A stretch of 64,000 nt of DNA, taken from assembly GCA_026770705.1 (NCBI GenBank), contig JANJGN010000163.1, forward strand, positions 372,001 through 436,000, in the 5' to 3' direction. Shown here piece after piece: positions 3,001-64,000 of the stretch. The position numbers were made by a program, and so were the translations under genes. A model generated the notes under the pieces. It worked only from the letters and a program-made list of their open reading frames with translations. It was not told the DNA's origin and made no database searches. Origin of the DNA: Isurus oxyrinchus (taxonomy: Eukaryota). Positions within the stretch are counted from its first letter, which is position 1. Each line of letters begins with the position of its first letter.

Positions 3001-3502
3001 CACTCTCCATGTGCCACTACTGGACACTCCATGTGTCACTACTGAATTCTCCATGTGTCACTACTCGTCACTCCATGTGTCACTACTGAACTCTCCATGT
3101 GTCACTACTGGACACTCCATGTGTCACTACTGAACTCTCCATGAGTCACTACTGAACTCTCCATGTGTCACTACTGGACATTCCATGTGTCACTACTGAA
3201 CTCTCCATGTGTCACTACTGGACACTCCATGTGTCACTACTGAACTCTCCATGTGTCACTACTGGACACTCCATGTGTCACTACTGAATTCTGCATATGT
3301 CACTACTGAACTCTCCATGTGCCACTACCGGACACTCCATGTGTCACTACTCGACTCTCCATGTGCCACTACTGAACTCTCCATGTGTCACTACTCGACA
3401 CTCCATGTGCCACTACTGAACTCTCCATGTGTCACTACTGGACACTCCATGTGTCACTATGGACACTCCATGTGTCACTACTGGACACTCCATGTGTCAC
3501 TA
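1..3502. repeat. 22-bp tandem repeat (minisatellite) array, about 159 copies; consensus CCATGTGTCACTACTGGACACT with major variants ...CTGAACTCT and ...CTCGACACT
   Basis: 22-bp periodicity is read directly from base 1 to about 3502 (ends ...catgtgtcacta|ttaccggg). 1-bp deletions were noticed near 2524 and 3460. The array is truncated by the window's left edge. Confidence 0.98.
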
Positions 3503-3542
3503 TTACCGGGAACAACACCCTTCCCGAGTGACTATCTCTTTT

Positions 3543-3569
3543 GGGGGGGGGGGGGGGGGGGTGGGGGGG
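3543..3569 (+). repeat. G homopolymer tract (G19-T-G7), potential G-quadruplex
   Basis: The tract is directly visible. Homopolymer length may be affected by sequencing error. Confidence 0.85.
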
Positions 3570-3738
3570 ACATGAGACGGGTCCGTCCCCTCAGCTGTTG
3601 GAAAGTGACCCCATAGTCCCTGTTGTTGTTGATGGGGAGGGGGAACAGCAGGGAGCTCCCCTGCGCCCTTTGCAAACTTCTGAAACCGACCAGCACCCTT
3701 TCAGCAAAGAAATAAATCCCCAAATCTATTGCCCCCTA

Positions 3739-3795
3739 ATGGTATTTGCTGTCTGGAATCTTGCTGCCTGCAATTTGGCGCTGGCCTTATCCGCA
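3739..3795 (+). other. Candidate leader (signal peptide) exon for the V segment, MVFAVWNLAACNLALALSA, lacking a usable phase-1 donor
   Basis: A hydrophobic ATG-initiated peptide lies about 150-200 bp upstream of the V acceptor, a typical L-V distance. The only GT at its end (GCA|GTGCCT) is weak and phase 0, and the frame stops at TGA 3808-3810. Confidence 0.3.
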
Positions 3796-3917
3796 GTGCC
3801 TGCTCTTTGAGAATAGAAACAGCCTTTGGGTGGGAAGCGCTTTGGAAAAGGCCTGAGGCTTTAATTTGTCTCTTTCCAGGCACCCCTCCTTCATAGCAGC
3901 AGGACTGGAAATGTGAA

Positions 3918-3941
3918 CCTGCTCCATGTTCCACTCCACAG
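3918..3941 (+). promoter_or_regulatory. Splice acceptor of the V exon (pyrimidine-rich tract + CAG, AG at 3940-3941)
   Basis: The sequence reads cctgctccatgttccactccacAG|GAATTCTG. Splicing here splits the Gly codon G|GA (phase 1), as in Ig/TCR leader introns. Confidence 0.8.
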
Positions 3942-4236
3942 GAATTCTGGCCTCTTATGTGGAGCAGTTCCCTTCTACCGAGTCTCTGTCAGCAGGAGAA
4001 TCCACAACCCTCGAGTGCACTCTGAGCAGTACTGCATCTCGCTCCATGTCCTGGTACACACAACAGGCAGATCGGGCAACGGAAGGTCTGTTCTATTCTG
4101 CTGGGAAAGATATGGTGACAAATGACACCGCCGACTCTCTGAGCACCAACAGGCCCAGCGATACCCTGTTTACCCTGGAATTGAGAGGCGCCTCTCTCTC
4201 TCACGCCGCTCTCTACGTCTGTGCTTGTAGTTATTG
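3942..4236 (+). CDS. TRBV: T-cell receptor beta variable gene segment (V exon), TRBV30-like, germline/unrearranged
   Basis: Open frame (G)ILASYVEQFPSTESLSAGESTTLECTLSSTASRSMSWYTQQADRATEGLFYSAGKDMVTNDTADSLSTNRPSDTLFTLELRGASLSHAALYVCACSY. V-set hallmarks are present: first Cys (4016-4018), Trp (4052-4054) and YxC second Cys (4220-4222). Motifs QxP, LECT, WYxQxAxR, LFYSxG, LSxxRPxDxxFxL and YxCAxS match my recollection of TRBV30-clade sequences. The exon ends 14 nt after the second Cys codon and is immediately followed by a 23-RSS. V-segment identity is strong; the subfamily call is from memory, not a search. Confidence 0.88.
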
Positions 4237-4275
4237 CACAGCCAGTGAGAAAGCGGATCTGCAGGCACAAAAACC
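4237..4275 (+). promoter_or_regulatory. Recombination signal sequence, 23-bp spacer (RAG1/2 target)
   Basis: Heptamer CACAGCC at 4237-4243 (5/7 to CACAGTG with the critical CAC intact; a heptamer commonly seen at TRBV genes). Spacer of exactly 23 bp at 4244-4266. Perfect consensus nonamer ACAAAAACC at 4267-4275. Confidence 0.95.
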
Positions 4276-4321
4276 CGCATCGCATCGGTGGCCGGTTAGG
4301 GCTCATTTCCACCTCCCCTCC

Positions 4322-4465
4322 NNNNNNNNNNNNNNNNNNNNNNNNNNNNNNNNNNNNNNNNNNNNNNNNNNNNNNNNNNNNNNNNNNNNNNNNNNNNNNN
4401 NNNNNNNNNNNNNNNNNNNNNNNNNNNNNNNNNNNNNNNNNNNNNNNNNNNNNNNNNNNNNNNNN
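4322..4465. other. Assembly gap, 144 N
   Basis: Run of N flanked on both sides by C-rich low-complexity sequence. Confidence 0.99.
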
Positions 4466-4567
4466 CCCCTCTCCTCGCACCCCCCTCCCCCTCCCGTACC
4501 CCTCCCCTCCCGCCTCACCACACCCCCTCTCCCCCTCCCCCCTACCCCTCCTCCCCCTTTCCTCCCC
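4466..4567 (-). repeat. C-rich polypyrimidine low-complexity tract (G-rich, G4-prone on the minus strand)
   Basis: Many C3-C6 runs separated by single T/A/G bases. Confidence 0.85.
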
Positions 4568-4714
4568 GGTGCCAGCAGCGGATCATCGTTCAGGGCAAGT
4601 TTCCTTCCCAACAGGAGCTTGGAAACCACAGAATGAGACAGGGAGTGAATAAGCCCATCGTGTCCAGGCTGCTCCACACGGTGCCTGGAGAGAACTGCTC
4701 AGTAAATCACACAA

Positions 4715-4827
4715 CCCCACCCCCTCCCCCTCCGCCAATCACCCTCCCCCCACTCCTCCCCCTCCCCTCCCCCTACCCCCACCTCACCTCCCCCACCTCC
4801 TCCCCTCCCCCTCCCCTAAACCCTCCC
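4715..4827 (-). repeat. Second C-rich low-complexity tract (CCCCT-like), G4-prone on the minus strand
   Basis: Repeated CCCCT/CCCCA units. A shorter similar tract lies at about 4960-4986. Confidence 0.85.
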
Positions 4828-4996
4828 TGAACCTTCCAACGGTTTCCTCCATAGATCCACTCTTTTATCTTTCTGCAGCTATTCACCAATCTTGTTCCCA
4901 ACAGCGGTGCGTTCAAGGTCACGGAAATCATGACAGGTCCTGGCTCAGAATAGACATTTCCCCTTCTCCCTACCACCCCACCCTCCACTGCTGCGG

Positions 4997-7900
4997 AGAT
5001 ATCAGACTTGGGATGTCAACCTGGAATTGACAATCTCATTAGATATCAAACTTGGGATGTCAACCTGGAAATGAAAATCTAATTAGATATCAGACTTGGG
5101 ATGTCAACCTGGAATTGACAATCTAATTAGATATCAGACTTGGGATGTCAACCTGGAATTGACAATCTAATTAGATATCAGACTTGGGATGTCAACTTGG
5201 AATTGACAATCTAATTAGATATCAGACTTGGGATGTCAACCTGGAATTGACAATCTCATTAGATATCAGACTTGGGATGTCAACCTGGAATTGACAATCT
5301 AATTAGATATCAGACTTGGGATGTCAACCTGGAATTGACAATCTAATTAGCTTTTACACTTGGGATATCAACCTGGAATTGACAATCTAATTAGATATCA
5401 AACTTGGGATGTCAACCTGGAATTGACAATCTAATTAGATATCAGACTTGGGATGTCAACCTGGAATTGACAATCTAATTAGATATCAGACTTGGGATGT
5501 CAACCTGGAATTGACAATCTAATTAGATATCAGACTTTGGATGTCAACCTGGAATTGACAATCTAATTAGATATCAGACTTGGGATGTCAACCTGGAATA
5601 GACAATCTAATTAGAAATCAGACTTGGGATGTCAACTTAGAATTGACAATCTAATTAGATATCAGACTTGGGATGTCAACCTGGAATTGACAATCTAATT
5701 AGTTATCAGACTTGGGATGTCAACTTGGAATTGACAATCTAATTAGATATCAGACTTGGGATGTCAACCTGGAATTGACAATCTAATTAGATATCAGACT
5801 TGGGATGTCAACTTGGAATTGACAATCTAATTAGATATCAGACTTGGGATGTCAACCTGGATTTGACAATCAAATTAGATATCAGACTTGGGATGTCAAT
5901 CTGGAATTGACAATCTAATTAGATATCAGACTTGGGATGTCAACCTGGAATTGACAATCTAATTAGATATCAGACTTGGGATGTCGACTTGGAATTGACA
6001 ATCTAATTAGATATCAGACTTGGGATGTCAATCTGGAATTGACAATCTAATTAGATATCAGACTTGGGATGTCAACCTGGTATTGACAATCTAATTAGAT
6101 ATCAGACTTGGGATGTCAACTTGGAATTGACAATCTAATTAGATATCAAACTTGGGATGTCAACCTGGAATTGACAATCTAATTAGATATCAAACTTGGG
6201 ATGTCAACTTGGAATTGACAATCTAATTAGATATCAGACTTGGGATGTCAACCTGGAATTGACAATCTAATTAGATATCAAACTTGGGATGTCAACCTGG
6301 AATTGACAATCTAATTAGATGTCAGACTTGGGATGTCAACCTGGAATTGACAATCTCATTAGATATCAGACTTGGGATGTCAACCTGGAATTGACAATCT
6401 AATTAGATATCAAACTTGGGATGTCAACCTGGAATTGACAATCTCATTAGATATCAGACTTGGGATGTCAACCTGGAATTGACAATCTAATTAGATATCA
6501 AACTTGGGATGTCAACCTGGAATTGACAATCTAATTAGATATCAGACTTGGGATGTCAACCTGGAATTGACAATCTAATTAGATATCACACATGGGATGT
6601 CAACCAGGATTTGACAATCTAATTAGATATCAGACTTGGGATGTCAACCTGGAATTGACAATCTAATTAGATATCAGACTTGGGATGTCAACCTGGAATT
6701 GACAATCTCATTAGATATCAGACTTGGGATGTCAACCTGGAATTGACAATCTAATTAGATATCAGACTTCGGATGTCAACTTGGAATTGACAATCTAATT
6801 AGATATCAAACTTGGGATGTCAACCTGGAATTGACAATCTAATTAGATATCAGACTTGGGATGTCAATCTGGAATTGACAATCTAATTAGATATCAGACT
6901 TGGGGTGTCAACTTGGAATTGACAATCTAATTAGGTATCACACTTGGGATGTCAACCTGGATTTGACAATCTAATTAGATATCAGACTTGGGATGTCAAC
7001 CTGGAATTGACAATCTAATTAGATATCAGACTTGGGATGTCAACCTGGAATTGACAATCTAATTAGATATCAAACTTGGGATGTCAACCTGGAATTGACA
7101 ATCTAATTAGATATCAGACTTGGGATGTCAACCTGGAATTGACAATCTAATTAGATATCAGACTTGGGATGTCAATCTGGAATTGACAATCTAATTAGAT
7201 ATCCGACTTGGGGTGTCAACTTGGAATTGACAATCTAATTAGATATCAAACTTGGGATGTCAACCTGGAATTGACAATCTAATTAGATATCAAACTTGGG
7301 ATGTCAACTTGGAATTGACAATCTAATTAGATATCAAACTTGGGATGTCAACCTGGAATTGACAATCTAATTAGATATCAAACTTGGGATGTCAACCTGG
7401 AATTGACAATCTAATTAGATATCAGACTTGGGATGTCAACCTGGAATTGACAATCTAATTAGATATCAAAATTGGGATGTCAACCTAGAATTGACAATCT
7501 AATTAGATATCAGACTTGGGATGTCAACCTGGAATTGACAATCTAATTAGATATCACACTTGGGATATCAACCTGGAATTGACAATCTAATTAGATATAA
7601 GACTTGGGATGTCAACCTGGAATTGACAAACTAATTAGATATCAGACTTGGGAAGTCAACCTGGAATTGACAATCTCATTACATATCAGACTTGGGATGT
7701 CAACCTGGAATTGACAATCTAATTAGATATCAGACTTGGGATGTCAACCTGGAATTGACAATCTAATTAGATATCAGACTTGGGATGTCAACTTGGAATT
7801 GACAATCTAATTAGATATCAGACTTGGGATGTCAACCTGGAATTGACATTCTAATTAGAAATCAGACTTGGGATGTCAACTTGGAATTGACAATCTAATT

Positions 7901-10900
7901 AGATATCAGACTTGGGATGTCAACCTTGAATTGACAATCTAATTAGATATCAGAGTTGGGATGTCAACTTGGAATTGACAATCTAATTAGATATCAGACT
8001 TGGGATGTCAACCTGGAATTGACAATCTAATTAGATATCAGACTTGGGATGTCAACTTGGAATTGACAATCTAATTAGATATCACACTAGGGATGTCAAC
8101 CTGGATTTGACAATCTAATTAGATATCAGACTTGGGATGTCACCTTGGAATTGACAATCTAATTAGATATCAGACTTGGGATGTCAACCTGGAATTGACA
8201 ATCTAATTAGATATCAGACTTGGGATGTCGACTTGGAATTGACAATCTAATTAGATATCAGACTTGGGATGTCAACCTGGAATTGACAATCTAATTAGAT
8301 ATCAGACTTGGGATGTCAACCTGGAATTGACAATCTAATTAGATATCAAACTTGGGATGTCAACCTGGAATTGACAATCTAATTAGATATCAAACTTGGG
8401 ATGTCAACTTGGAATTGACAATCTAATTAGATATCAGACTTGGGATGTCAACTTGGAATTGACAATCTAATTAGATATCAAACTTGGGATGTCAACCTGG
8501 AATTGACAATCTAATTAGATATCAGACTTGGGATGTCAATCTGGAATTGACAATCTAATTAGATATCAGACTTGGGGTGTCAACTTGGAATTGACAATCT
8601 AATTAGATATCACACTTGGGATGTCAACCTGGATTTGACAATCTAATTAGATATCAGACTTGGGATGTCAACCTGGAATTGACAATCTAATTAGATATCA
8701 AACTTGGGATGTCAACCTGGAATTGACAATCTAATTAGATATCAGACTTGGGATGTCAACCTGGAATTGACAATCTAATTAGATATCACACTTGGGATGT
8801 CAATCTGGAATTGACAATCTAATTAGATATCCGACTTGGGGTGTCAACTTGGAATTGACAATCTAATTAGATATCAAACTTGGGATGTCAACCTGGAATT
8901 GACAATCTAATTAGATATCAAACTTGGGATGTCAACTTGGAATTGACAATCTAATTAGATATCAAACTTGGGATGTCAACCTGGAATTGACAATCTAATT
9001 AGATATCAAACTTGGGATGTCAACCTGGAATTGACAATCTAATTAGATATCAGACTTGGGATGTCAACCTGGAATTGACAATCTAATTAGATATCAAAAT
9101 TGGGATGTCAACCTAGAATTGACAATCTAATTAGATATCAGACTTGGGATGTCAACCTGGAATTGACAATCTAATTAGATATCACACTTGGGATATCAAC
9201 CTAAAATTGACAATCTAATTAGATATAAGACTTGGGATGTCAACCTGGAATTGACAATCTAATTAGATATCAGACTTGGGAAGTCAACCTGGAATTGACA
9301 ATCTCATTACATATCAGACTTGGGATGTCAACCTGGAATTGACAATCTAATTAGCTATCAGACTTGGGATGTCAACCTGGAATTGACAATCTAATTAGAT
9401 ATCAGACTTGGGATGTCAACTTGGAATTGACAATCTAATTAGATATCAGACTTGGGATGTCAAACTGGAATTGACAATCTAATTAGAAATCAGACTTGGG
9501 ATGTCAACTTGGAATTGACAATCTAATTAGATATCAGACTTGGGATGTCAACCTTGAATTGACAATCTAATTAGATATCAGAGTTGGGATGTCAACTTGG
9601 AATTGACAATCTAATTAGATATCAGACTTGGGATGTCAACCTGGAATTGACAATCTAATTAGATATCAGACTTGGGATGTCAACTTGGAATTGACAATCT
9701 AATTAGATAGCACACTTGGGATGTCAACCTGGATTTGACAATCTAATTAGATATCAGACTTGGGATGTCAACTTGGAATTGACAATCTAATTAGATATCA
9801 GACTTGGGATGTCAACCTGGAATTGACAATCTAATTAGATATCAGACTTGGGATGTCGACTTGGAATTGACAATCTAATTAGATATCAGACTTGGGAAGT
9901 CAACCTGGAATTGACAATCTAATTAGATATCAGACTTGGGATGTCAACCTGGAATTGACAATCTAATTAGATATCAAACTTGGGATGTCAACCTGGAATT
10001 GACAATCTAATTAGATATCAAACTTGGGATGTCAACTTGGAATTGACAATCTAATTAGATATCAGACTTGGGATGTCAACTTGGAATTGACAATCTAATT
10101 AGATATCAAACTTGGGATGTCAACCTGGAATTGACAATCTAATTAGATATCAGACTTGGGATGTCAATCTGGAATTGACAATCTAATTAGATATCAGACT
10201 TGGGGTGTCAACTTGGAATTGACAATCTAATTAGATATCACACTTGGGATGTCAACCTGGATTTGACAATCTAATTAGATATCAGACTTGGGATGTCAAC
10301 CTGGAATTGATAATCTAATTAGATATCAAACTTGGGATGTCAACCTGGAATTGACAATCTAATTAGATATCAGACTTGGGATGTCAACCTGGAATTGACA
10401 ATCTAATTAGATATCACACTTGGGATGTCAACCTGGATTTGACAATCTAATTAGATATCAGACTTGGGATGTCAACCTGGAATTGACAATCTAATTAGAT
10501 ATCAGACTTGGGATGTCAACCTGGAATTGACAATCTCATTAGATATCTGACTTGGGATGTCAACCTGGAATTGACAATTTAATTAGATATCAGACTTGGG
10601 ATGTCAACTTGGAATTGACAATCTAATTAGATATCAAACTTGGGATGTCAACCTGGAATTGACAATCTAATTAGATATCAGACTTGGGATGTCAATCTGG
10701 AATTGACAATCTAATTAGATATCAGACTTGGGGTGTCAACTTGGAATTGACAATCTAATTAGATATCAAACTTGGGATGTCAACCTGGAATTGACAATCT
10801 AATTAGATATCAAACTTGGGATGTCAACTTGGAATTGACAATCTAATTAGATATCAAACTTGGGATGTCAACCTTGAATTGACAATCTAATTAGATATCA

Positions 10901-13900
10901 AACTTGGGATGTCAACCTGGAATTGACAATCTAATTAGATATCAGACTTGGGATGTCAACCAGGAATTGACAATCTAATTAGATATCAAAATTGGGATGT
11001 CAACCTAGAATTGACACTCTAATTAGATATCAGACTTGGGATGTCAACCTGGAATTGACAATCTAATTAGATATCACACTTGGGATATCAACCTGGAATT
11101 GACAATCTAATTAGATATCAGACTTGGGATGTCAACCTGGAATTGACAATCTAATTAGATATCAGACTTGGGATGTCAACCTGGAATTGACAATCTCATT
11201 AGATATCAGACTTGGGATGTCAACCTGGAATTGACAATCTAATTAGATATCAGACTTGGGATGTCAACCTGGAATTGACAATCTAATTAGATATCAGACT
11301 TGGGATGTCAACTTGGAATTGACAATCTAATTAGATATCAGACTTGGCATGTCAACCTGGAATTGACAATCTAATTAGAAATCAGACTTGGGATGTCAAC
11401 TTGGAATTGACAATCTAATTAGATATCAGACTTGGGATGTCAACCTGGAATTGACAATCTAATTAGATATCAGACTTGGGATGTCAACTTGGAATTGACA
11501 ATCTAATTAGATATCAGACTTGGGATGTCAACCTGGAATTGACAATCTAATTAGATATCAGACTTGGGATGTCAACTTGGAATTGACAATCTAATTAGAT
11601 ATCACACTTGGGATGTCAACCTGGATTTGACAATCTAATTAGATATCAGACTTGGGATGTCAACTTGGAATTGACAATCTAATTAGATATCAGACTTGGG
11701 ATGTCAACCTGGAATTGACAATCTAATTAGAAATCAGACTTGGGATGTCGACTTGGAATTGACAATCTAATTAGATATCAGACTTGGGATGTCAATCTGG
11801 AATTGACAATCTAATTAGATATCAGACTTGGGATGTCAACCTGCTATTGACATTCTAATTAGATATCAGACTTGGGATGTCAACTTGGAATTGACAATCT
11901 AATTAGATATCAAACTTGGGATGTCAACCTGGAATTGACAATCTAATTAGATATCAAACTTGGGATGTCAACTTGGAATTGACAATCTAATTAGATATCA
12001 GACTTGGGATGTCAACCTGGAATTGACAATCTAATTAGATATCAAAATTGGGATGTCAACTTAGAATTGACAATCTAATTAGATATCAGACTTGGGATGT
12101 CAACCTGGAATTGACAATCTAATTAGATATCACACTTGGGATATCAACCTGGAATTGACAATCTAATTAGATATCAGACTTGGGATGTCAACCTGGAATT
12201 GACAATCTAATGAGATATCAGACTTGGGATGTCAACCTGGAATTGACAATCTCATTAGATACCAGACTTGGGATGTCAACCTGGAATTGACAATCTAATT
12301 AGATATCAAACTTGGGATGTCAACCTGGAATTGACAATCTAATTAGATATCAGACTTGGGATGTCAACCTGGAATTGACAATCTAATTAGATATCACACT
12401 TTGGATGTCAACCTGGATTTGACAATCTAATTAGATATCAGACTTGGGATGTCAACCTGGAATTGACAATCTAATTAGATATCAGACTTGGGATGTCAAC
12501 CTGGAATTGACAATCTAATTAGATATCAGACTTGGGATGTCAACCTGGAATTGACAATCTAATTAGATATCAGACTTGGGATGTCAACTTGGAATTGACA
12601 ATCTAATTAGATATCAAACTTGGGATGTCAACCTGGAATTGACAATCTAATTAGATATCAGACTTGGGATGTCAATCTGGAATTGACAATCTAATTAGAT
12701 ATCAGACTTGGGGTGTCAACTTGGAATTGACAATCTAATTAGATATCAAACTTGGGATGTCAACCTGGAATTGACAATCTAATTCGATATCAAACTTGGG
12801 ATGTCAACTTGGAATTGACAATCTAATTAGATATCAAACTTGGGATGTCAACCTTGAATTGACAATCTAATTAGATATCAAACTTGGGATGTCAACCTGG
12901 AATTGACAATCTAATTAGATATCAGACTTGGGATGTCAACCTGGAATTGACAATCTAATTAGATATCAAAATTGGGATGTCAACCTAGAATTGACAATCT
13001 AATTAGATATCAGACTTGGGATGTCAACCTGGAATTGACAATCTAATTAGATATCACACTTGGGATATCAACCTGGAATTGACAATCTAATTAGATATCA
13101 GACTTGGGATGTCAACCTGGAATTGACAATCTCATTAGATATCAGACTTGGGATGTCAACCTGGAATTGACAATCTCATGAGATATCAGACTTGGGATGT
13201 CAACCTGGAATTGACAATCTAATTAGATATCAGACTTGGGATGTCAACTTGGAATTGACAATCTAATTAGATATCAGACTTGGCATGTCAACCTGGAATT
13301 GACAATCTAATTAGAAATCAGACTTGGGATGTCAACTTGGAATTGACAATCTAATTAGATATCAGACTTGGGATGTCAACGTGGAATTGACAATCTAATT
13401 AGATATCAGACTTGGGATGTCAACTTGGAATTGACAATCTAATTAGATATCAGACTTGGGATGTCAACCTGGAATTGACAATCTAATTAGATATCAGACT
13501 TGGGATGTCAACTTGGAATTGACAATCTAATTAGATATCACACTTGGGATGTCAACCTGGATTTGACAATATAATTAGATATCAGACTTGGGATGTCAAC
13601 TTGGAATTGGCAATCTAATTAGATATCAGACTTGGGATGTCAACCTGGAATTGACAATCTAATTAGATGTCAGACTTGGGATGTCAACCTGGAATTGACA
13701 ATCTCATTAGATATCAGACTTGGGATGTCAACCTGGAATTGACAATCTAATTAGATATCACACTTGGGATGTCAACCTGGATTTGACAATCTAATTAGTT
13801 ATCAAACTTGGGATGTCAACCTGGAATTGACAATCTAATTAGATATCAAACTTGGGATGTCAACTTGGAATTGACAATCTAATTAGATATCAGACTTGGG

Positions 13901-16900
13901 ATGTCAACCTGGAATTGACAATCTAATTAGATATCAAAATTGGGATGTCAACCTAGAATTGACACTCTAATTAGATATCAGACTTGGGATGTCAACCTGG
14001 AATTGACAATCTAATTAGATATCACACTTGGGATATCAACCTGGAATTGACAATCTAATTAGATATCAGACTTGGGATGTCAACCTGGAATTGACAATCT
14101 AATTAGATATCAGACTTGGGATGTCAACCTGGAATTGACAATCTCATTAGATATCAGACTTGGGATGTCAACCTGGAATTGACAATCTAATTAGATATCA
14201 GACTTGGGATGTCAACCTGGAATTGACAATCTAATTAGATATCAGACTTGGGATGTCAACTTGGAATTGACAATCTAATTAGATATCAGACTTGGCATGT
14301 CAACCTGGAATTGACAATCTAATTAGAAATCAGACTTGGGATGTCAACTTGGAATTGACAATCTAATTAGATATCAGACTTGGGATGTCAACCTGGAATT
14401 GACAATCTAATTAGATATCAGACTTGGGATGTCAACTTGGAATTGACAATCTAATTAGATATCAGACTTGGGATGTCAACCTGGAATTGACAATCTAATT
14501 AGATATCAGACTTGGGATGTCAACTTGGAATTGACAATCTAATTAGATATCACACTTGGGATGTCAACCTGGATTTGACAATCTAATTAGATATCAGACT
14601 TGGGATGTCAACTTGGAATTGACAATCTAATTAGATATCAGACTTGGGATGTCAACCTGGAATTGACAATCTAATTAGAAATCAGACTTGGGATGTCGAC
14701 TTGGAATTGACAATCTAATTAGATATCAGACTTGGGATGTCAATCTGGAATTGACAATCTAATTAGATATCAGACTTGGGATGTCAACCTGCTATTGACA
14801 TTCTAATTAGATATCAGACTTGGGATGTCAACTTGGAATTGACAATCTAATTAGATATCAAACTTGGGATGTCAACCTGGAATTGACAATCTAATTAGAT
14901 ATCAAACTTGGGATGTCAACTTGGAATTGACAATCTAATTAGATATCAGACTTGGGATGTCAACCTGGAATTGACAATCTAATTAGATATCAAAATTGGG
15001 ATGTCAACTTAGAATTGACAATCTAATTAGATATCAGACTTGGGATGTCAACCTGGAATTGACAATCTAATTAGATATCACACTTGGGATATCAACCTGG
15101 AATTGACAATCTAATTAGATATCAGACTTGGGATGTCAACCTGGAATTGACAATCTAATGAGATATCAGACTTGGGATGTCAACCTGGAATTGACAATCT
15201 CATTAGATACCAGACTTGGGATGTCAACCTGGAATTGACAATCTAATTAGATATCAAACTTGGGATGTCAACCTGGAATTGACAATCTAATTAGATATCA
15301 GACTTGGGATGTCAACCTGGAATTGACAATCTAATTAGATATCACACTTTGGATGTCAACCTGGATTTGACAATCTAATTAGATATCAGACTTGGGATGT
15401 CAACCTGGAATTGACAATCTAATTAGATATCAGACTTGGGATGTCAACCTGGAATTGACAATCTCATTAGATATCAGACTTGGGATGTCAACCTGGAATT
15501 GACAATCTAATTAGATATCAGACTTGGGATGTCAATTTGGAATTGACAATCTAATTAGATATCAAACTTGGGATGTCAACCTGGAATTGACAATCTAATT
15601 AGATATCAGACTTGGGATGTCAATCTGGAATTGACAATCTAATTAGATATCAGACTTGGGGTGTCAACTTGGAATTGACAATCTAATTAGATATCAAACT
15701 TGGGATGTCAACCTGGAATTGACAATCTAATTCGATATCAAACTTGGGATGTCAACTTGGAATTGACAATCTAATTAGATATCAAACTTGGGATGTCAAC
15801 CTTGAATTGACAATCTAATTAGATATCAAACTTGGGATGTCAACCTGGAATTGACAATCTAATTAGATATCAGACTTGGGATGTCAACCTGGAATTGACA
15901 ATCTAATTAGATATCAAAATTGGGATGTCAACCTAGAATTGACAATCTAATTAGATATCAGACTTGGGATGTCAACCTGGAATTGACAATCTAATTAGAT
16001 ATCACACTTGGGATATCAACCTGGAATTGACAATCTAATTAGATATCAGACTTGGGATGTCAACCTGGAATTGACAATCTCATTAGATATCAGACTTGGG
16101 ATGTCAACCTGGAATTGACAATCTCATGAGATATCAGACTTGGGATGTCAACCTGGAATTGACAATCTAATTAGATATCAGACTTGGGATGTCAACTTGG
16201 AATTGACAATCTAATTAGATATCAGACTTGGCATGTCAACCTGGAATTGACAATCTAATTAGAAATCAGACTTGGGATGTCAACTTGGAATTGACAATCT
16301 AATTAGATATCAGACTTGGGATGTCAACCTGGAATTGACAATCTAATTAGATATCAGACTTGGGATGTCAACTTGGAATTGACAATCTAATTAGATATCA
16401 GACTTGGGATGTCAACCTGGAATTGACAATCTAATTAGATATCAGACTTGGGATGTCAACTTGGAATTGACAATCTAATTAGATATCACACTTGGGATGT
16501 CAACCTGGATTTGACAATATAATTAGATATCAGACTTGGGATGTCAACTTGGAATTGACAATCTAATTAGATATCAGACTTGGGATGTCAACCTGGAATT
16601 GACAATCTAATTAGAAATCAGACTTGGGATGTCGACTTGGAATTGACAATCTAATTAGAAATCAGACTTGGGATGTCAATCTGGAATTGACAATCTAATT
16701 AGATATCAGACTTGGGATGTCAACCTGCTATTGACAATCTAATTAGATATCAGACTTGGGATGTCAACTTGGAATTGACAATCTAATTAGTTATCAAACT
16801 TGGGATGTCAACCTGGAATTGACAATCTAATTAGATATCAAACTTGGGATGTCAACTTGGAATTGACAATCTAATTAGATATCAGACTTGGGATGTCAAC

Positions 16901-52900: not shown

Positions 52901-55900
52901 GACAATCTAATTAGATATCAAACTTGGGATGTCAACTTGGAATTGACAATCTAATTGGATATCAAACTTGGGCTGTCAACCTGGAATTGACAATCTAATT
53001 AGATATCAAACTTGGGATGTCAACCTGGAATTGACAATCTAATTAGATATCAGACTTGGGATGTCAACCTGGAATTGACAATCTAATTAGATATCAAAAT
53101 TGGGATGTCAACCTAGAATTGACAATCTAATTAGATATCAGACTTGGGATGTCAACCTGGAATTGACAATCTAATTAGATATCAGACTTGGGATATCAAC
53201 CTGGAATTGACAATCTAATTAGATATCAGACTTGGGATGTCAACCTGGAATTGACAATCTAATTAGATATCAGACTTGGGATGTCAACCTGGAATTGACA
53301 ATCTCATTAGATATCAGACTTGGGATGTCAACCTGGAATTGACAATCTAATTAGATATCAGACTTGGGATGTCAACCTGGAATTGACAATCTAATTAGAT
53401 ATAAGACTTGGGATGTCAACTTGGAATTGACAATCTAATTAGATATCAGACTTGGCATGTCAACCTGGAATTGACAATCTAATTAGAAATCAGACTTGGG
53501 ATGTCAACTTGGAATTGACAATCTAATTAGATATCAGACTTGGGATGTCAACCTGGAATTGACAATCTAATTAGATATCAGACTTGGGATGTCAACTTGG
53601 AATTGACAATCTAATTAGATATCAGACTTGGGATGTCAACCTGGAATTGACAATCTAATTAGATATCAGACTTGGGATGTCAACTTGGAATTGACAATCT
53701 AATTAGATATCACACTTGGGATGTCAACCTGGATTTGACAATCTAATTAGATATCAGACTTGGGATGTCAACTTGGAATTGACAATCTAATTAGATATCA
53801 GACTTGGGATGTCAACCTGGAATTGACAATCTAATTAGAAATCAGACTTGGGATGTCGACTTGGAATTGACAATCTAATTAGATATCAGACTTGGGATGT
53901 CAATCTGGAATTGACAATCTAATTAGATATCAGACTTGGGATGTCAACCTGCTATTGACAATCTAATTAGATATCAGACTTGGGATGTCAAGTTGGAATT
54001 GACAATCTAATTAGATATCAAACTTGGGATGTCAACCTGGAATTGACAATCTAATTAGATATCAAAATTGGGATGTCAACTTGGAATTGACAATCTAATT
54101 AGATATCAGACTTGGGATGTCAACCTGGAATTGACAATCTAATTAGATATCAAACTTGGGATGTCAACCTGGAATTGACAATCTAATTAGATATCAGACT
54201 TGGGATGTCAACCTGGAATTGACAATCTAATTAGATATCAGACTTGGGATGTCAACCTGGAATTGACAATCTAATTAGATATCAAACTTGGGATGTCAAC
54301 CTAGAATTGACAATCTAATTAGATATCAGACTTGGGATGTCAACCTAGAATTGACAATCTAATTAGATAACAGACTTGGGATGTCAACCTGGAATTGACA
54401 ATCTAATTAGATATCACACTTGGGATGTCAACCTGGATTTGACAATCTAATTAGATATCAGACTTGGGATGTCAACCTGGAATTGACAATCTAATTAGAT
54501 ATCAAACTTGGGATGTCAACCTGGAATTGACAATCTAATTAGATATCAGACTTGGGATGTCAACCTGGAATTGACAATCTAATTAGATATCAGACTTGGG
54601 ATGTCAACCTGGAATTGACAATCTAATTAGATATCAGACTTGGGATGTCAACCTGGAATTGACAATCTAATTAGATATCAGACTTGGGATGTCAACCTGG
54701 AATTGACAATCTAATTAGATATCAAACTTGGGATGTCAACCTGGAATTGACGATCTAATTAGATATCAGACTTGGGATGTCAACCTGGAATTGACAATCT
54801 AATTAGATGTCACACTTGGGATGTCAACCTGGATTTGACAATCTAATTAGATATCAGACTTGGGATGTCAACCTGGAATTGACAATCTAATTAGATATCA
54901 GATTTGGGATGTCAACCTGGAATTGACAATCTCATTAGATATCAGACTTGGGATGTCAACCTGGAATTGACAATCTAATTAGATATCACACTTGGGATGT
55001 CAACTTGGAATTGACAATCTAATTAGATATCAAACTTTGGATGTCAACCTGGAATTGACAATCTAATTAGATATCAGACTTGGGATGTCAATCTGGAATT
55101 GACAATCTAATTAGATATCAGACTTGGAGTGTCAACTTGGAATTGACAATCTAATTAGATATCACACTTGGGATGTCAACCTGGATTTGACAATCTAATT
55201 AGATATCAGACTTGGGATGTCAACCTGGAATTGACAATCTAATTAGATATCAAACTTGGGATGTCAACCTGGAATTGACAGTCTAATTAGATATCAGACT
55301 TGGGATGTCAACCTGGAATTGACAATCTAATTAGATATCAGACTTGGGATGTCAACCTGGAATTGACAATCTAATTAGATATCAGACTTGGGATGTCAAC
55401 CTGGAATTGACAATCTAATTAGATATCAGACTTGGGATGTCAACCTGGAATTGACGATCTAATTAGATATCAAACTTGGGATGTCAACCTGGAATTGACG
55501 ATCTAATTAGATATCAGACTTGGGATGTCAAGCTGGAATTGACAATCTAATTAGATATCACACTTGGGATGTCAACCTGGATTTGACAATCTAATTCGAT
55601 ATCAGACTTGGGATGTCAACCTGGAATTGACAATCTCATTAGATATCAGACTTGGGATGTCAACCTGGAATTGACAATCTAATTAGATATCAGACTTGGG
55701 ATGTCACCCTGGAATTGACAATCTCATTAGATATCAGACTTGGGATGTCAACCTGGAATTGACAATCTAATTAGATATCAGACTTGGGATGTCAACTTGG
55801 AATTGACAATCTAATTAGATATCAAACTTGGGATGTCAACCTGGAATTGACAATCTAATTAGATATCAGACTTGGGATGTCAATCTGGAAATGACAATCT

Positions 55901-58900
55901 AATTAGATATCAGACTTGGGATGTCAACCTGGAATTGACAATCTAATTAGATATCAAACTTGGGATGTCAACCTGGAATTGACAATCTAATTAGATATCA
56001 GACTTGGGATGTCAACCTGGAATTTACAATCTAATTAGATATCAAACTTGGGATGTCAACCTAGAATTGACAATCTAATTAGATATCATACTTGGGATGT
56101 CAACCTGGAATTGACAATCTAATTAGATATGAAACTTGGGATGTCAACCTGGAATTGACAATCTAATTAGATATCAGACTTGGGATGTCAACCTGGAATT
56201 GACAATCTAATTAGATATCAGACTTGGGATGTCAACCTGGAATTGAGAATCTAATTAGATATCAGTCTTGGGATGTCAACTTTGAATTGACAATCTAATT
56301 TGATATCAAACTTGGGATGTCAACCTGGAATTGACGATCTAATTAGATATCAGACTTGGGATGTCAACCTGGAATTGACAATCTAATTAGATATCACACT
56401 TGGGATGTCAACCTGGATTTGACAATCTAATTAGATATCAGACTTGGGATGTCAACCTGGAATTGACAATCTAATTAGATATCAGACTTGGGATGTCAAC
56501 CTGGAATTGACAATCTCATTAGATATCAGACTTGGGATGTCAACCTGGAATTGACAATCTAATTAGATATCAGACTTGGGATGTCAACTTGGAATTGACA
56601 ATCTAATTAGCTATCAAACTTGGGATGTCAACCTGGAATTGACAATCTAATTAGATATCAGACTTGGGATGTCAATCTGGAATTGACAATCTAATTAGAT
56701 ATCAGACTTGGAGTGACAACTTGGAATTGACAATCTAATTAGATATCACACTTGGGATGTCAACCTGGATTTGACAATCTAATTAGATATCAGACTTGGG
56801 ATGTCAACCTGGAATTGACAATCTCATTAGATATCAAACTTGGGATGTCAACCTGGAATTGACAATCTAATTAGATATCAGACTTGGGATGTCAACCTGG
56901 AATTGACAATCTAATTAGATATCAGACTTGGGATGTCAACCAGGAATTGACAATCTAATTAGATATCAGACTTGGGATGTCAACCTGGAATTGACAATCT
57001 AATTAGATATCAGACTTGGGATGTCAACCTGGAATTGACAATCTAATTAGATATCAAACTTGGGATGTCAACCTGGAATTGACGATCTAATTAGATATCA
57101 GACTTGGGATGTCAACCTGGAATTGACAATCTAATTAGATATCAGACTTGGGATGTCAACCTGGATTTGACAATCTAATTAGATATCAGACTTGGGATGT
57201 CAACCTGGAATTGACAATCTCATTAGATATCAGACTTGGGATGTCAACCTGGAATTGACAATCTCATTAGATATCAGACTTGGGATGTCAACCTGGAATT
57301 GACAATCTAATTAGATATCAGACTTGGGATGTCAACTTGGAATTGACAATCTAATTAGATATCAAACTTGGGATGTCAACCTGGAATTGACAATCTAATT
57401 AGATATCAGACTTGGGATGTCAATCTGGAATTGACAATCTAATTAGATATCAAACTTGGGATGTCAACCTGGAATTGACAATCTAATTAGATATCAAACT
57501 TGGGATGTCAACTTGGAATTGACAATCTAATTAGATATCAGACTTGGGATGTCAACCTGGAATTGACAATCTAATTAGATATCAAAATTGGGATGTCAAC
57601 CTAGAATTGACATTCTAATTAGATATCAGACTTGGGATGTCAACCTGGAATTGACAATCTAATTAGATATCACACTTGGGATATCAACCTGGAATTGAAA
57701 ATCTAATTAGATATCAGACTTGGGATGTCAACCTGGAATTGACAATCTAATTAGATATCAGACTTGGGATGTCAACCTGGAATTGACAATCTCATTAGAT
57801 ATCAGACTTGGGATGTCAACCTGGAATTGACAATCTAATTAGATAGCAAACTTGGGATGTCAACCTGGAATTGACAATCTAATTAGATATCAGACTTGGG
57901 ATGTCAACCTGGAATTGACAATCTAATTAGATATCACACTTGGGATGTCAACCTGGATTTGACAATCTAATTAGATATCAGACTTGGGATGTCAACCTGG
58001 AATTGACAATCTAATTAGATATCAGACTTGGGATGTCAACCTGGAATTGACAATCTCATTAGATATCAGACTTGGGATGTCAACCTGGAATTGACAATCT
58101 AATTAGATATCAGACTTGGGATGTCAACTTGGAATTGACAATCTAATTAGATATCAAACTTGGGATGTCAACCTGGAATTGACAATCTAATTAGATATCA
58201 GACTTGGGATGTCAATCTGGAATTGACAATCTAATTAGATATCAGACTTGGGGTGTCAACTTGGAATTGACAATCTAATTAGATATCAAACTTGGGATGT
58301 CAACCTGGAATTGACAATCTAATTCGATATCAAACTTGGGATGTCAACTTGGAATTGACAATCTAATTAGATATCAAACTTGGGATGTCAACCTTGAATT
58401 GACAATCTAATTAGATATCAAACTTGGGATGTCAACCTGGAATTGACAATCTAATTAGATATCAGACTTGGGATGTCAACCTGGAATTGACAATCTAATT
58501 AGATATCAAAATTGGGATGTCAACCTAGAATTGACAATCTAATTAGATATCAGACTTGGGATGTCAACCTGGAATTGACAATCTAATTAGATATCACTCT
58601 TGGGATATCAACCTGGAATTGACAATCTAATTAGATATCAGACTTGGGATGTCAACCTGGAATTGACAATCTAATTAGATATCAGACTTGGGATGTCAAC
58701 TTGGAATTGACAATCTAATTAGATATCAGACTTGGGATGTCAATGTGGAATTGACAATCTAATTAGATATCAGACTTGGGATGTCAACTTGGAATTGACA
58801 ATCTAATTAGATATCAGACTTGGGATGTCAACCTGGAATTGACAATCTAATTAGATATCAGACTTGGGATGTCAACTTGGAATTGACAAACTAATTAGAT

Positions 58901-61900
58901 ATCACTCCTGGGATGTCAACCTGGATTTGACAATCTAATTAGATATCAGACTTGGGATGTCAACTTGGAATTGACAATCTAATTAGATATCAGACTTGGG
59001 ATGTCAACCTGGAATTGACAATCTAATTAGAAATCAGACTTGGGATGTCGACTTGGAATTGACAATCGAATTAGATATCAGACTTGGGATGTCAATCTGG
59101 AATTGACAATCTAATTAGATATCAGACTTGGGATGTCAACCAGCTATTGACAATCTAATTAGATATCAGACTTGGGATGTCAACTTGGAATTGACAATCT
59201 AATTAGATATCAAACTTGGGATGTCAACCTGGAATTGACAATCTAATTAGATATCAAACTTGGGATGTCAACTTGGAATTGACAATCTAATTAGATATCA
59301 GACTTGGGATGTCAACCTGGAATTGACAATCTAATTAGATATCAAAATTGGGATGTCAACCTAGAATTGACAATCTAATTAGATATCAGACTTGGGATGT
59401 CAACCTGGAATTGACAATCTAATTAGATATCACACTTGGGATATCAACCTGGAATTGACAATCTAATTAGATATCAGACTTGGGATTTCAACCTGGAATT
59501 GACAATCTAATTAGATATCAGACTTGGGATGTCAACCTGGAATTGACAATCTCATTAGATATCAGACTTGGGATGTCAAACTGGAATTGACAATCTAATT
59601 AGATATCAGACTTGGGATGTCAACCTGGAATTGACAATCTAATTAGATATCAGACTTGGGATGTCAACTTGGAATTGACAATCTAATTAGATATCAGACT
59701 TGGCATGTCAACCTGGAATTGACGATCTAATTAGATATCAGACTTGGGATGTCAACCTGGAATTGACAATCTAATTAGATATCACACTTGGGATGTCAAC
59801 CTGGATTTGACAATCTAATTAGATATCAGACTTGGGATGTCAAACTGGAATTGACAATCTAATTAGATATCAGACTTGGGATGTCAACCTGGAATTGACA
59901 ATCTCATTTGATATCAGACTTGGGATGTCAACCTGGAATTGACAATCTAATTAGATATCAGACTTGGGATGTCAACTTGGAATTGACAATCTAATTAGCT
60001 ATCAAACTTGGGATGTCAACCTGGAATTGACAATCTAATTAGATATCAGACTTGGGATGTCAATCTGGAATTGACAATCTAATTAGATATCAGACTTGGA
60101 GTGTCAACTTGGAATTGACAATCTAATTAGATATCACACTTGGGATGTCAACCTGGATTTGACAATCTAATTAGATATCAGACTTGGGATGTCAACCTGG
60201 AATTGACAATCTCATTAGATATCAAACTTGGGATGTCAACCTGGAATTGACAATCTAATTAGATATCAGACTTGGGATGTCAACCTGGAATTGACAATCT
60301 AATTAGATATCAGACTTGGGATGTCAACCAGGAATTGACAATCTAATTAGATATCAGACTTGGGATGTCAACCTGGAATTGACAATCTAATTAGATATCA
60401 GACTTGGGATGTCAACCTGGAATTGACAATCTAATTAGATATCAAACTTGGGATGTCAACCTGGAATTGACGATCGAATTAGATATCAGACTTGGGATGT
60501 CAACCTGGAATTGACAATCTCATTAGATATCAGACTTGGGATGTCAACCTGGAATTGACAATCTAATTAGATATCAGACTTGGGATGTCAACTTGGAATT
60601 GACAATCTAATTAGATATCAAACTTGGGATGTCAACCTGGAATTGACAGTCTAATTAGATATCAGACTTGGGATGTCAATCTGGAATTGACAATCTAATT
60701 AGATATCAAACTTGGGATGTCAACCTGGAATTGACAATCTAATTAGATATCAAACTTGGGATGTCAACTTGGAATTGACAATCTAATTAGATATCAGACT
60801 TGGGATGTCAACCTGGAATTGACAATCTAATTAGATATCAAAATTGGGATGTCAACCTAGAATTGACATTCTAATTAGATATCAGACTTGGGATGTCAAC
60901 CTGGAATTGACAATCTAATTAGATATCACACTTGGGATATCAACCTGGAATTGAAAATCTAATTAGATATCAGACTTGGGATGTCAACCTGGAATTGACA
61001 ATCTAATTAGATATCAGACTTGGGATGTCAACCTGGAATTGACAATCTCATTAGATATCAGACTTGGGATGTCAACCTGGAATTGACAATCTAATTAGAT
61101 ATCAAACTTGGGATGTCAACCTGGAATTAACAATCTAATTAGATATCAGACTTGGGATGTCAACCTGGAATTGACAATCTAATTAGATATCACACTTGGG
61201 ATGTCAACCTGGATTTGACAATCTAATTAGATATCAGACTTGGGATGTCAACCTGGAATTGACAATCTAATTAGATATCAGACTTGGGATGTCAACCGGG
61301 AATTGACAATCTCATTAGATATCAGACTTGGGATGTCAACCTGGAATTGACAATCTAATTAGATATCAGACTTGGGATGTCAACTTGGAATTGACAATCT
61401 AATTAGATATCAAACTTGGGATGTCAACCTGGAATTGACAATCTAATTAGATATCAGACTTGGGATGTCAATCTGGAATTGACAATCTAATTAGATATCA
61501 GACTTGGGGTGTCAACTTGGAATTGACAATCTAATTAGATATCAAACTTGGGATGTCAACCTGGAATTGACAATCTAATTCGATATCAAACTTGGGATGT
61601 CAACTTGGAATTGACAATCTAATTAGATATCAAACTTGGGATGTCAACCTTGAATTGACAATCTAATTAGATATCAAACTTGGGATGTCAACCTGGAATT
61701 GACAATCTAATTAGATATCAGACTTGGGATGTCAACCTGGAATTGACAATCTAATTAGATATCAAAATTGGGATGTCAACCTAGAATTGACAATCTAATT
61801 AGATATCAGACTTGGGATGTCAACCTGGAATTGACAATCTAATTAGATATCACTCTTGGGATATCAACCTGGAATTGACAATCTAATTAGATATCAGACT

Positions 61901-64000
61901 TGGGATGTCAACCTGGAATTGACAATCTAATTAGATATCAGACTTGGGATCTCAACCTGGAATTGACAATCTAATTAGAAATCAGACTTGGGATGTCAAC
62001 TTGGAATTGACAATCTAATTAGATATCAGACTTGGGATGTCAATGTGGAATTGACAATCTAATTAGATATCAGACTTGGGATGTCAACCTGGAATTGACA
62101 ATCTAATTAGATATCACTCTTGGGATATCAACCTGGAATTGACAATCTAATTAGATATCAGACTTGGGATGTCAACCTGGAATTGACAATCTAATTAGAT
62201 ATCAGACTTGGGATCTCAACCTGGAATTGACAATCTAATTAGAAATCAGACTTGGGATGTCAACTTGGAATTGACAATCTAATTAGATATCAGACTTGGG
62301 ATGTCAATGTGGAATTGACAATCTAATTAGATATCAGACTTGGGATGTCAACTTGGAATTGACAATCTAATTAGATATCAGACTTGGGATGTCAACCTGG
62401 AATTGACAATCTAATTAGATATCAGACTTGGGATGTCAACTTGGAATTGACAAACTAATTAGATATCACTCCTGGGATGTCAACCTGGATTTGACAATCT
62501 AATTAGATATCAGACTTGGGATGTCAACTTGGAATTGACAATCTAATTAGATATCAGACTTGGGATGTCAACCTGGAATTGACAATCTAATTAGAAATCA
62601 GACTTGGGATGTCGACTTGGAATTGACAATCGAATTAGATATCAGACTTGGGATGTCAATCTGGAATTGACAATCTAATTAGATATCAGACTTGGGATGT
62701 CAACCAGCTATTGACAATCTAATTAGATATCAGACTTGGGATGTCAACTTGGAATTGACAATCTAATTAGATATCAAACTTGGGATGTCAACCTGGAATT
62801 GACAATCTAATTAGATATCAAACTTGGGATGTCAACTTGGAATTGACAATCTAATTAGATATCAGACTTGGGATGTCAACCTGGAATTGACAATCTAATT
62901 AGATATCAAAATTGGGATGTCAACCTAGAATTGACAATCTAATTAGATATCAGACTTGGGATGTCAACCTGGAATTGACAATCTAATTAGATATCACACT
63001 TGGGATATCAACCTGGAATTGACAATCTAATTAGATATCAGACTTGGGATTTCAACCTGGAATTGACAATCTAATTAGATATCAGACTTGGGATGTCAAC
63101 CTGGAATTGACAATCTCATTAGATATCAGACTTGGGATGTCAAACTGGAATTGACAATCTAATTAGATATCAGACTTGGGATGTCAACCTGGAATTGACA
63201 ATCTAATTAGATATCAGACTTGGGATGTCAACTTGGAATTGACAATCTAATTAGATATCAGACTTGGCATGTCAACCTGGAATTGACGATCTAATTAGAT
63301 ATCAGACTTGGGATGTCAACCTGGAATTGACAATCTAATTAGATATCACACTTGGGATGTCAACCTGGATTTGACAATCTAATTAGATATCAGACTTGGG
63401 ATGTCAAACTGGAATTGACAATCTAATTAGATATCAGACTTGGGATGTCAACCTGGAATTGACAATCTCATTTGATATCAGACTTGGGATGTCAACCTGG
63501 AATTGACAATCTAATTAGATATCAGACTTGGGATGTCAACTTGGAATTGACAATCTAATTAGCTATCAAACTTGGGATGTCAACCTGGAATTGACAATCT
63601 AATTAGATATCAGACTTGGGATGTCAATCTGGAATTGACAATCTAATTAGATATCAGACTTGGAGTGTCAACTTGGAATTGACAATCTAATTAGATATCA
63701 CACTTGGGATGTCAACCTGGATTTGACAATCTAATTAGATATCAGACTTGGGATGTCAACCTGGAATTGACAATCTCATTAGATATCAAACTTGGGATGT
63801 CAACCTGGAATTGACAATCTAATTAGATATCAGACTTGGGATGTCAACCTGGAATTGACAATCTAATTAGATATCAGACTTGGGATGTCAACCAGGAATT
63901 GACAATCTAATTAGATATCAGACTTGGGATGTCAACCTGGAATTGACAATCTAATTAGATATCAGACTTGGGATGTCAACCTGGAATTGACAATCTAATT
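4997..64000. repeat. 44-bp satellite DNA array, 1341 monomers, consensus AGATATCAGACTTGGGATGTCAACCTGGAATTGACAATCTAATT
   Basis: The array starts abruptly at 4997 (ctgcgg|AGATATC). 59004 bp / 44 = 1341 exactly. Monomers usually differ from the consensus by 0-3 substitutions, all are head-to-tail in one orientation, and no insertions of other sequence were seen. The consensus has an EcoRV site (GATATC) and no CpG. Confidence 0.99.

Follow-up and report, generated by a model that had tools for sequence, protein, structure and literature searches.

A T-cell receptor V gene of the shark Isurus oxyrinchus has its recombination signal sequence (RSS) pointing into a large satellite array, which raises the question of where its D-J-C partner lies and whether V(D)J joining would remove the satellite from T-cell DNA. 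The gene was found in a window of 64,000 nucleotides (positions 372,001 to 436,000 of contig JANJGN010000163.1, here C163). We followed it through the genome assembly, in which a conventional TRB region is found on contig C31. An earlier note on the window had proposed that recombination could excise or invert at least 59 kb of satellite.

The V gene and its recombination signal

The V frame (3941-4240 of the window) was open, with the hallmark Cys, Trp and Cys residues. The two top PDB matches were TCR V-beta chains, the V of a rearranged TCR-beta cDNA from nurse shark (ADW95896.1) was 54% identical to it, and in a 10-row tree it clustered at 100/100 with the V1-type rows as against two rows of the second V family described below, which places the sequence among TRBV. 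Protein searches with this V gave no matches. A leader exon was not found when sought inside the window. It was located just upstream, it matches the leader of the C31 paralogue in position, and its phase agrees with the acceptor phase of the V exon. The leader, in-phase splice sites, hallmarks and 23-RSS together make up a V gene (Table 1).

Both strands of the window were scanned with spacers of 11-13 and 22-24. A single RSS was detected, on the + strand and with a perfect nonamer, and it faces the satellite 3' of the V as the earlier note had described. In agreement with the note, the two-strand scan found no 12-RSS in the window. An RSS of this quality did not occur in 160,000 bases sampled from C31, and none of 3000 base shuffles of the window's non-satellite island produced one. 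Sequencing runs X1, X3, X5 and X6 gave no contig over window positions 3700-4300, which says nothing either way on use of the V.

Table 1. Features of the V gene, its flanking satellites and the D segment. Positions are those of the window unless a contig is named.
Feature	Position	Strand	Remarks
Leader exon	C163:368,085 (donor)		MFPGVYSLISVAAILP; phase-1 GT donor, just 5' of the window
22-bp satellite	1..3502	+	found with TRF; 7.2 kb in all, from C163:368,306; within the leader-to-V intron
TRBV exon 2	3942..4236	+	open frame; splice acceptor AG at 3940-3941
23-RSS	4237..4275	+	heptamer CACAGCC, 23 nt spacer, nonamer ACAAAAACC; faces the satellite
Spacer from RSS to satellite	4276..4996	.	C-rich low-complexity tracts at 4466-4816; includes a stretch reading N
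44-bp satellite	4997..64000	+	95% matches between copies; runs on to C163:481,450
D segment	C2826:35,453-35,464	-	

Satellites around the V gene

As the leader exon lies upstream of the window, the 22-bp satellite is intronic. On the RSS side, the stretch reading N is no assembly gap: in the genome assembly itself the stretch is free of N, and of the 9 full copies of the window V, 8 have the 44-bp satellite 773-1029 nt past the RSS. The join across 4322-4465, about which the note had been cautious, therefore stands. The whole 44-bp array beside the window V measures 104,454 bp (104.5 kb), so that 59 kb was an underestimate. This satellite is likely inside the interval predicted to be deleted.

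The suggestion that the array might be centromeric or pericentromeric was not supported by the genome search. A 27-mer probe of the 44-bp repeat had 1,694 of its 1,714 exact genome matches on C163, about 202 kb in all, in a test that would miss diverged variants and unassembled arrays. By this test the repeat does not form a high-copy family in large arrays beyond one locus, as a centromeric satellite would, and the satellites are private to the locus. In four other units the 44-bp repeat is just 0.9-4 kb long. Behind near-identical V copies the 44-bp arrays span 0.9-104 kb, and the 22-bp arrays in the leader introns of such copies span 3-129 kb. A simple CTCF-like motif was absent from the 10 kb scanned in each of four satellites.

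A contig of V segments

All 1,117,549 bp of C163 (1.12 Mb) were read. Tandem repeat makes up 72% of the contig, compared with just 1.5% in 160 kb (16 pieces) sampled from the TRB region of C31. C163 carries 46 V segments, all on the + strand, with 7 copies of the window V and 39 members of a second family. The V ends on this contig read CACS or CAASE/CAAGE. Two of the 7 copies are damaged, by a stop at 797k and a Y-to-C change at 915k, and the copy at 799k has no leader of its own. In the second family 29 of 39 segments combine an open frame and the hallmarks with an RSS of no more than 4 mismatches, the other 10 fail this intactness test, and a leader was recognised for 18. This family is 68% identical to an expressed horn shark V (rearranged cDNA AAA61563.1); its closest relative on C31 shares 44% identity over the full length. 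Judged by sequence identity, both V families are present in rearranged shark cDNAs.

No D, J or C and no strict 12-RSS were found on C163, and tblastn with two C exons returned no C exon in the window or elsewhere on the contig. N bases are absent outside the masked stretch of the window. Only 7 bases in 10 kb separate the units at 182-192 kb and 356-366 kb, so that one of them may be a false duplication. Between other units the difference is 1.4-3%. The interval from the window V is unaffected by this suspect pair.

A D-J-C cluster next to a 36-bp satellite

Read on its minus strand, contig C2826 carries a 36-bp array running off the contig end, then a D, six J, a C1-set exon and a transmembrane (TM) exon; no V was found on it. 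The D has a 5' 12-RSS about 25 bp past the array and a perfect 3' 23-RSS. The six J have the FGxG motif, a 12-RSS (spacers 12-13, 3-8 mismatches in the RSS) and GT donors. The C gene consists of a C1-set domain, a connecting peptide and a TM exon with the conserved Lys motif. Its last (cytoplasmic) exon was not located. The C exon is 60% identical to horn shark TCR-beta C and 51-57% identical to the C31 copies (57% to the conventional TRB there). Protein searches with it gave no matches, a Pfam C1-set search (150 of 973 candidates scored) was dominated by immunoglobulin clusters, and C-region trees of 6 and 7 rows left orthology and duplication age without resolution.

The upstream DNA of the C31 D is missing from the C2826 D and satellite stands in its place, a replacement that could impair use of the D. 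When the 36-bp unit was compared with six pieces from around the D-J regions of C31, no match exceeded 12 nt. Essentially every monomer of the array has a heptamer-like CACAGAG on the convergent strand (28 per kb, as against 0 on the other strand).

Transcript-like contigs were sought in four sequencing runs that were guessed to be RNA, none of them being on record as such. Two of these, X6 (organism A, study P3) and X9 (organism B, study P5), yielded a contig that spans the J1 RSS and has its end precisely at the GT donor of J1. This points to germline transcription from J1 to C, where the C is presumed, as the sequence spliced to J1 was not displayed. The records listed from the runs were dominated by a SINE-like repeat, and no V-D-J junction was among them. 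Organism B holds 0.39 of the C exon words of C2826 in several studies. In X1, X2 and X9 the J3 bin alone had depth, with both neighbouring bins at zero, which is a weak signal.

The probable link between the two contigs

C163 ends in 114 kb of the 36-bp satellite, and 23 kb of it abuts the D on C2826. A 36-bp probe had 1,963 of 1,966 exact genome matches on these two contigs and 3 elsewhere. The long arrays are in matching orientation, each off a contig end, their top monomer variants are common to both, and similarity between the contigs equals that of the within-array control. The shared private satellite strongly suggests that V and D-J-C are on one molecule in an orientation fit for recombination. 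Since the two ends share no overlap, their longest exact match being 273 nt, we infer both the physical contiguity and the length of the gap. On the question of an orphon V cluster, C163 itself gave no C match and no strict 12-RSS, but C2826 likely adjoins it. The other end of C2826 is tied to C4065 (152 of 152 matches in an equivalent probe test), which bears a truncated relative of the window V; a search extending C4065 matched a dispersed repeat alone. Further units with no colinear best match on C163 were found on C1134 and C1481, and these may be either haplotypes or extra units.

On its RSS side, where the note had expected a partner, the window V most likely has a D-J-C cluster past the array, that of C2826, and beyond the contig end its 23-RSS likely faces a D segment. 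The rule behind that expectation, that the partner is always on the RSS side, probably holds at this locus, as the genome shows, but is not universal, since orphon V genes and V-kappa genes facing away from J are exceptions. The window V is likely part of a second, diverged TCR-beta locus that arose by an old duplication.

C31 was also considered. Its D-J-C was rejected as the partner, as C31 supplies V genes of its own on either side and sampled pieces (20 of 10 kb, 19 of them from the first 850 kb) showed a different terminal satellite, no N and neither probe. C163 as a haplotype of C31 was rejected on identities of 44-55% for V and 57% for C.

The predicted deletion

The predicted interval for the window V is at least 764 kb, of which 557 kb (73%) is tandem repeat, and that for the nearest V is at least 148 kb, with 98% tandem repeat. 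Inversional joining was rejected, as all 46 V of C163 share the inferred orientation of the C2826 D-J-C. This orientation likely fits deletion, so the excision half of the earlier proposal, with the satellite inside the interval, is kept and the inversion half dropped. In a T cell that uses the window V, joining would likely remove at least 0.76 million bases, most of them satellite. Open reading frames of the rhodopsin GPCR family are passenger genes within the interval, a parallel to the trypsinogen genes held by mammalian TRB.

Under the 12/23 rule D would join to J first and V to DJ afterwards, and in this later step RAG would remove the satellites on a large excision circle. Growth in place from short minisatellites is the probable origin of these arrays, within a unit of about 50-240 kb that underwent seven duplications. 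Receptor assembly would remove them incidentally and not as its purpose. The predicted joining mechanism is ordinary RAG deletion; the satellite-filled architecture is the new part.

Alternative explanations

We consider it probable that I. oxyrinchus has a second TCR-beta locus, with a satellite contig of 46 V, a D-J-C cluster beyond at least 137 kb of 36-bp satellite, and satellites that RAG joining would delete. The anatomy of V, D, J and C is intact, all V of C163 are co-oriented and the 36-bp satellite is common only to the two contig ends. An unlikely alternative course is that the locus is linked but largely silent, with heterochromatin blocking V-to-DJ joining, sterile J-C transcripts only, and satellites that are never excised. 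The only well-resolved transcript-like contig is germline and would suit such a locus, as would the satellite upstream of the D, the 10 of 39 second-family copies that fail the intactness test and the lack of a V-D-J junction among the records listed. However, the C, the TM exon, the D and all six J have stayed intact, with RSS that are usable, although the C exon is so different from those of C31, the C exon words of organism B come from several studies, and the second V family is closer to the expressed horn shark V (68%) than to its best C31 relative (44%). The J3 depth points weakly in the same direction.

It is more improbable still that C163 is an orphon V cluster apart from C2826, with two separate 36-bp arrays and a C2826 that uses other V or none. 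Near the D one monomer variant has a frequency of 0.24-0.29, above the 0.09-0.21 of C163, but at the open end of C2826 its frequency (0.14-0.17) is inside the C163 range. The contig ends do not overlap, and the units on C1134 and C1481 mean that the order of the pieces is not unique; against this, both arrays run off contig ends in matching orientation, 3 of 1,966 probe matches are unaccounted for, and a C2826 without V and a C163 without C are complementary. Least probable of all is that the giant arrays or the unit count are partly an assembly artefact (false duplication or mixed haplotypes) and the real interval much smaller. Such an artefact would fit the two units that are 99.9-100% identical over 10 kb, and a 10-kb piece of the other giant 44-bp array contains 271 of the 1,270 500-mers sampled from the window. 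The divergence of the other units, the absence of N from the rest of C163 and the heterogeneous monomer variation along the arrays argue against it, and the suspect pair has no bearing on the 36-bp array that separates the last V from the D.

Comparison with known loci and meaning

Our preferred reading of a second, recombining locus can be compared with mouse Tcrb. As described in PMC10772921, deletional joining in the mouse spans distances up to 3 Mb, so the 0.15-0.94 Mb of the shark are within range, and the same order of V-23RSS, 12RSS-D-23RSS and 12RSS-J-C with convergent RSS leads to deletion. Unlike conventional TRB, the shark interval is 70-98% tandem repeat, the D RSS is about 25 bp from an array of at least 137 kb, and V leader introns hold 3-129 kb of satellite.

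In salmonids the TRB region exists as two paralogues whose constant genes have diverged (67% in salmon), and the head-to-head D-J-C pairs of these fish resemble the two clusters on C31 (PMC9247247, PMC10464911). Whole-genome duplication gave rise to the salmonid copies, and expression is shown for both, whereas the shark locus looks segmental in origin and its rearrangement is predicted. The word 'satellite' does not occur in the text of PMC10464911. Squamate TRE is likewise an extra locus, from a translocated TRB V-D-J-C block, but it has few segments in most squamates as compared with at least 46 V in the shark, and no satellite architecture appeared for TRE in the sections consulted (PMC11754216).

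The predicted loss also differs from programmed DNA elimination. In nematodes, lamprey and hagfish, satellite-rich DNA is lost from somatic cells embryo-wide with dedicated machinery. In the shark the loss would be clonal, limited to T cells, per allele and a by-product of RAG, in line with the clonal, lymphocyte-only loss that the RSS anatomy predicts.

The models of scanning and contraction rest on loci with many CTCF sites and active promoters, according to PMC10772921. The shark locus is a natural test of how RAG reaches distant V across a path of 70-98% tandem repeat, and its near-identical V copies behind unequal arrays are built-in controls for effects of distance and heterochromatin. 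The whole locus is split over unplaced satellite contigs, and shark TRB repertoires are perhaps under-annotated for this reason. Three D-J-C clusters raise the question of allelic and locus exclusion. As a tentative and rather doubtful extension, in a second working TRB every V-to-DJ join would excise at least 137 kb of satellite, the circles would measure 0.15 to more than 0.9 Mb, and array length, that in the V introns included, may heritably tune both V use and the exclusion between the two loci.

Results

The non-satellite island between the two satellites of the window carries an open V exon, whose closest solved structures are TCR V-beta chains, followed by a 23-RSS at 4237 on the + strand. 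As the earlier note had read it, this RSS lies to the right of the V. It is the only one detected in the window, and neither 160 kb of control DNA nor 3000 shuffles yielded one as good. The note's reservation that a D-J-C might be hidden in an N gap, or that the join might be wrong, is met by two findings: the masked bases do not mark a gap in the assembly, and the RSS-to-satellite adjacency is repeated in eight of nine full copies of this V. The odd residues around the second Cys characterise the family and recur in the V of a rearranged nurse shark cDNA. Within 3503-3941, no hydrophobic leader in phase was detected. The leader sits just 5' of the 22-bp satellite, which is therefore intronic; it has a phase-1 GT donor compatible with the acceptor at 3941 and is homologous to the leader region of a paralogue on C31, the contig with the conventional TRB. 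The window V gene is complete. On C163, the contig whose positions 372,001-436,000 make up the window, six leaders were located for seven V copies, at 3.7, 4.4, 7.9, 7.9, 17.4 and 129.5 kb from the exon, compared with about 0.6 kb for the leader intron of the C31 paralogue. The V copy behind the 129-kb intronic 22-bp array has a stop.

C163 was covered end to end (1,117,549 bases). Tandem repeats make up 72% of it, compared with 1.5% of the sequence in 16 pieces taken from the C31 TRB region. It consists of seven related units containing TG and GA microsatellites, GPCR ORFs, a 32-bp array, leader, 22-bp array, V and 44-bp array, and five of the units also hold a block of V segments from a second family. 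Array size varies between units from short to giant (44-bp array: 0.9, 2.2, 2.8, 4.1, 87.6 and 104.5 kb). All V segments, seven of the window type and 39 of the second family (29 passing the intactness test), are on the + strand. Neither a constant exon nor, by strict scan, a 12-RSS was found on C163; its last 114,422 bp are a 36-bp satellite. Two units differ by only 7 bases over 10 kb and could represent an artefactual duplication. The GPCR ORFs are intronless, belong to two rhodopsin-family subtypes and were duplicated together with the V units.

A 44-bp probe had 1,694 of its 1,714 exact matches on C163, which argues against the centromeric or pericentromeric array considered in the earlier note; the repeat behaves like a locus-private minisatellite expanded in place. 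Seven of 17 reverse matches were located on contig C1481, which also has a copy of the window island that lacks most of the V exon, and contig C1134 has two short 44-bp arrays. Array-length polymorphism is plausible but unproven, because C1134 and C1481 could represent either further units or the alternative haplotype.

The D-J-C region of C31 has V on both sides and on both strands, and the C exons of its two opposed clusters are 92% identical. With the C31 C exon as query, the 150 candidates scored out of 440 included a third intact-looking C on contig C2826 (58.5 kb; 57% identity), as well as a broken C on C31. The first 23 kb of the C2826 minus strand are 36-bp satellite. About 25 bp beyond it comes the 12-RSS that precedes a 12-nt D; a perfect 23-RSS lies on the other side of this D, followed by an inverted piece of the satellite, six J and the C exons as far as the TM lysine motif. 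As the inverted piece lies between D and J1, D-to-J joining would remove satellite too.

Features of the loci (numbers without a contig are window positions; interval sizes are minima that leave out the gap between contigs)
Feature	Position or size	Remark
22-bp satellite	1-3502	repeat annotation
Non-satellite island	1.5 kb, between the two satellites	V exon and RSS
44-bp satellite	4997-64000	repeat annotation
Leader of window V	C163:368,085	
Island copy	C1481:304-3,569	matches query 1-266 and 541-621 only
GPCR ORFs	C163 at 11 places (e.g. 358,177; 924,759), C1134, C1481, C4065:16,447	
C31 TRB features	C31:850,000-1,605,000	
Conventional TRB	C31, D at 1,182.6 kb, C at 1,200 kb	+; about nine J
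Second D-J-C of C31	1,347-1,330 kb	inverted
Broken C	C31, 1,099 kb	
J-like segment	C31:1,182,154	no RSS; upstream of first D
TCATG-based 26/57-bp satellite	C31:1-60,000	contig start, in both pieces sampled; about 0.8 Mb from TRB V genes
Inverted 36-bp satellite piece	C2826:34,599-35,010	11 copies; between D and J1
Window V interval	at least 764,400 bp	557,194 tandem (73%)
Nearest V interval	at least 148,347 bp	98% tandem
Farthest V interval	at least 938,733 bp	70% tandem

A 25-nt probe of the 36-bp satellite gave 1,966 exact genome matches, with 1,685 on C163 and 278 on C2826; the remaining three probably lie across boundaries between pieces. Each array extends off the end of its contig, the two orientations match and the main monomer variants are common to both, and no overlap between the arrays was found. 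From these sequence features we infer that C163 and C2826 are very probably contiguous. The earlier note's placement of the D-J-C partner on the RSS side of the V is thus probably right, but on evidence from outside the window. CACAGAG, the heptamer of the second V family, is part of the 36-bp monomer, with a density of 28 per kb on the strand that converges with the D 12-RSS; in a strict RSS scan of the 36-bp arrays no position passed. A second private satellite links the far end of C2826 to contig C4065 (152 of 152 matches), which carries a relative of the window V truncated at its 5' end. This relative would sit inverted and 3' of C, similar to the inverted TRBV of amniotes described in PMC11754216.

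The C exon of C2826 was found, whole or in part, in 19 runs (two organisms, eight studies; none recorded as RNA). The J1-J4 stretch was matched by contigs from run X6 of organism A (1,181 nt, depth 93) and run X9 of organism B (581 nt), both of which read through the J1 RSS and end exactly at the J1 GT donor. This fits a putative spliced germline J1 transcript. The germline contig extends towards the inverted satellite piece. Isolated depth was seen in the J3 bin in three of four runs. No V-D-J junction was found among the records listed for the J1-J4 stretch, a minority of all records. The window V gave no contig from four runs, which is uninformative as to its use.

Discussion

In the order proposed here, the 23-RSS of the V and the 12-RSS of the D are convergent, and convergent RSS give deletional joining (PMC10772921). 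Where the earlier note had allowed excision or inversion of at least 59 kb of satellite, deletion is therefore predicted and inversion is not; the satellite does fall inside the interval, which is far larger. Any V-to-D join from C163 would remove no less than 137 kb of 36-bp satellite. That some V of C163 rearranges is reasonably likely in our judgement, and use of the window copy itself is a somewhat doubtful, near-even matter. RAG-type V(D)J deletion is already known as a mechanism; the locus architecture is the new part.

Full-text literature searches on satellites in antigen-receptor loci listed few papers, of which one is irrelevant and another mentions satellite, and no second shark TRB locus was among the papers listed; the primary shark TCR-beta papers fall outside their scope, and a second constant gene may have been described before. 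In horn shark, the TCR-beta constant regions of gene models P0006-P0010 are near-identical and lie on contigs with four distinct lengths, and three of the models carry a V of the second family. Many Ig constant clusters were seen in the present genome; together with the named relatives of its sequences, they mark the organism as a cartilaginous fish. With the horn shark C on several contigs, it may not be unusual for sharks to have several TRB clusters. At the locus described here, a V-to-DJ deletion would take GPCR ORFs along with the V units.
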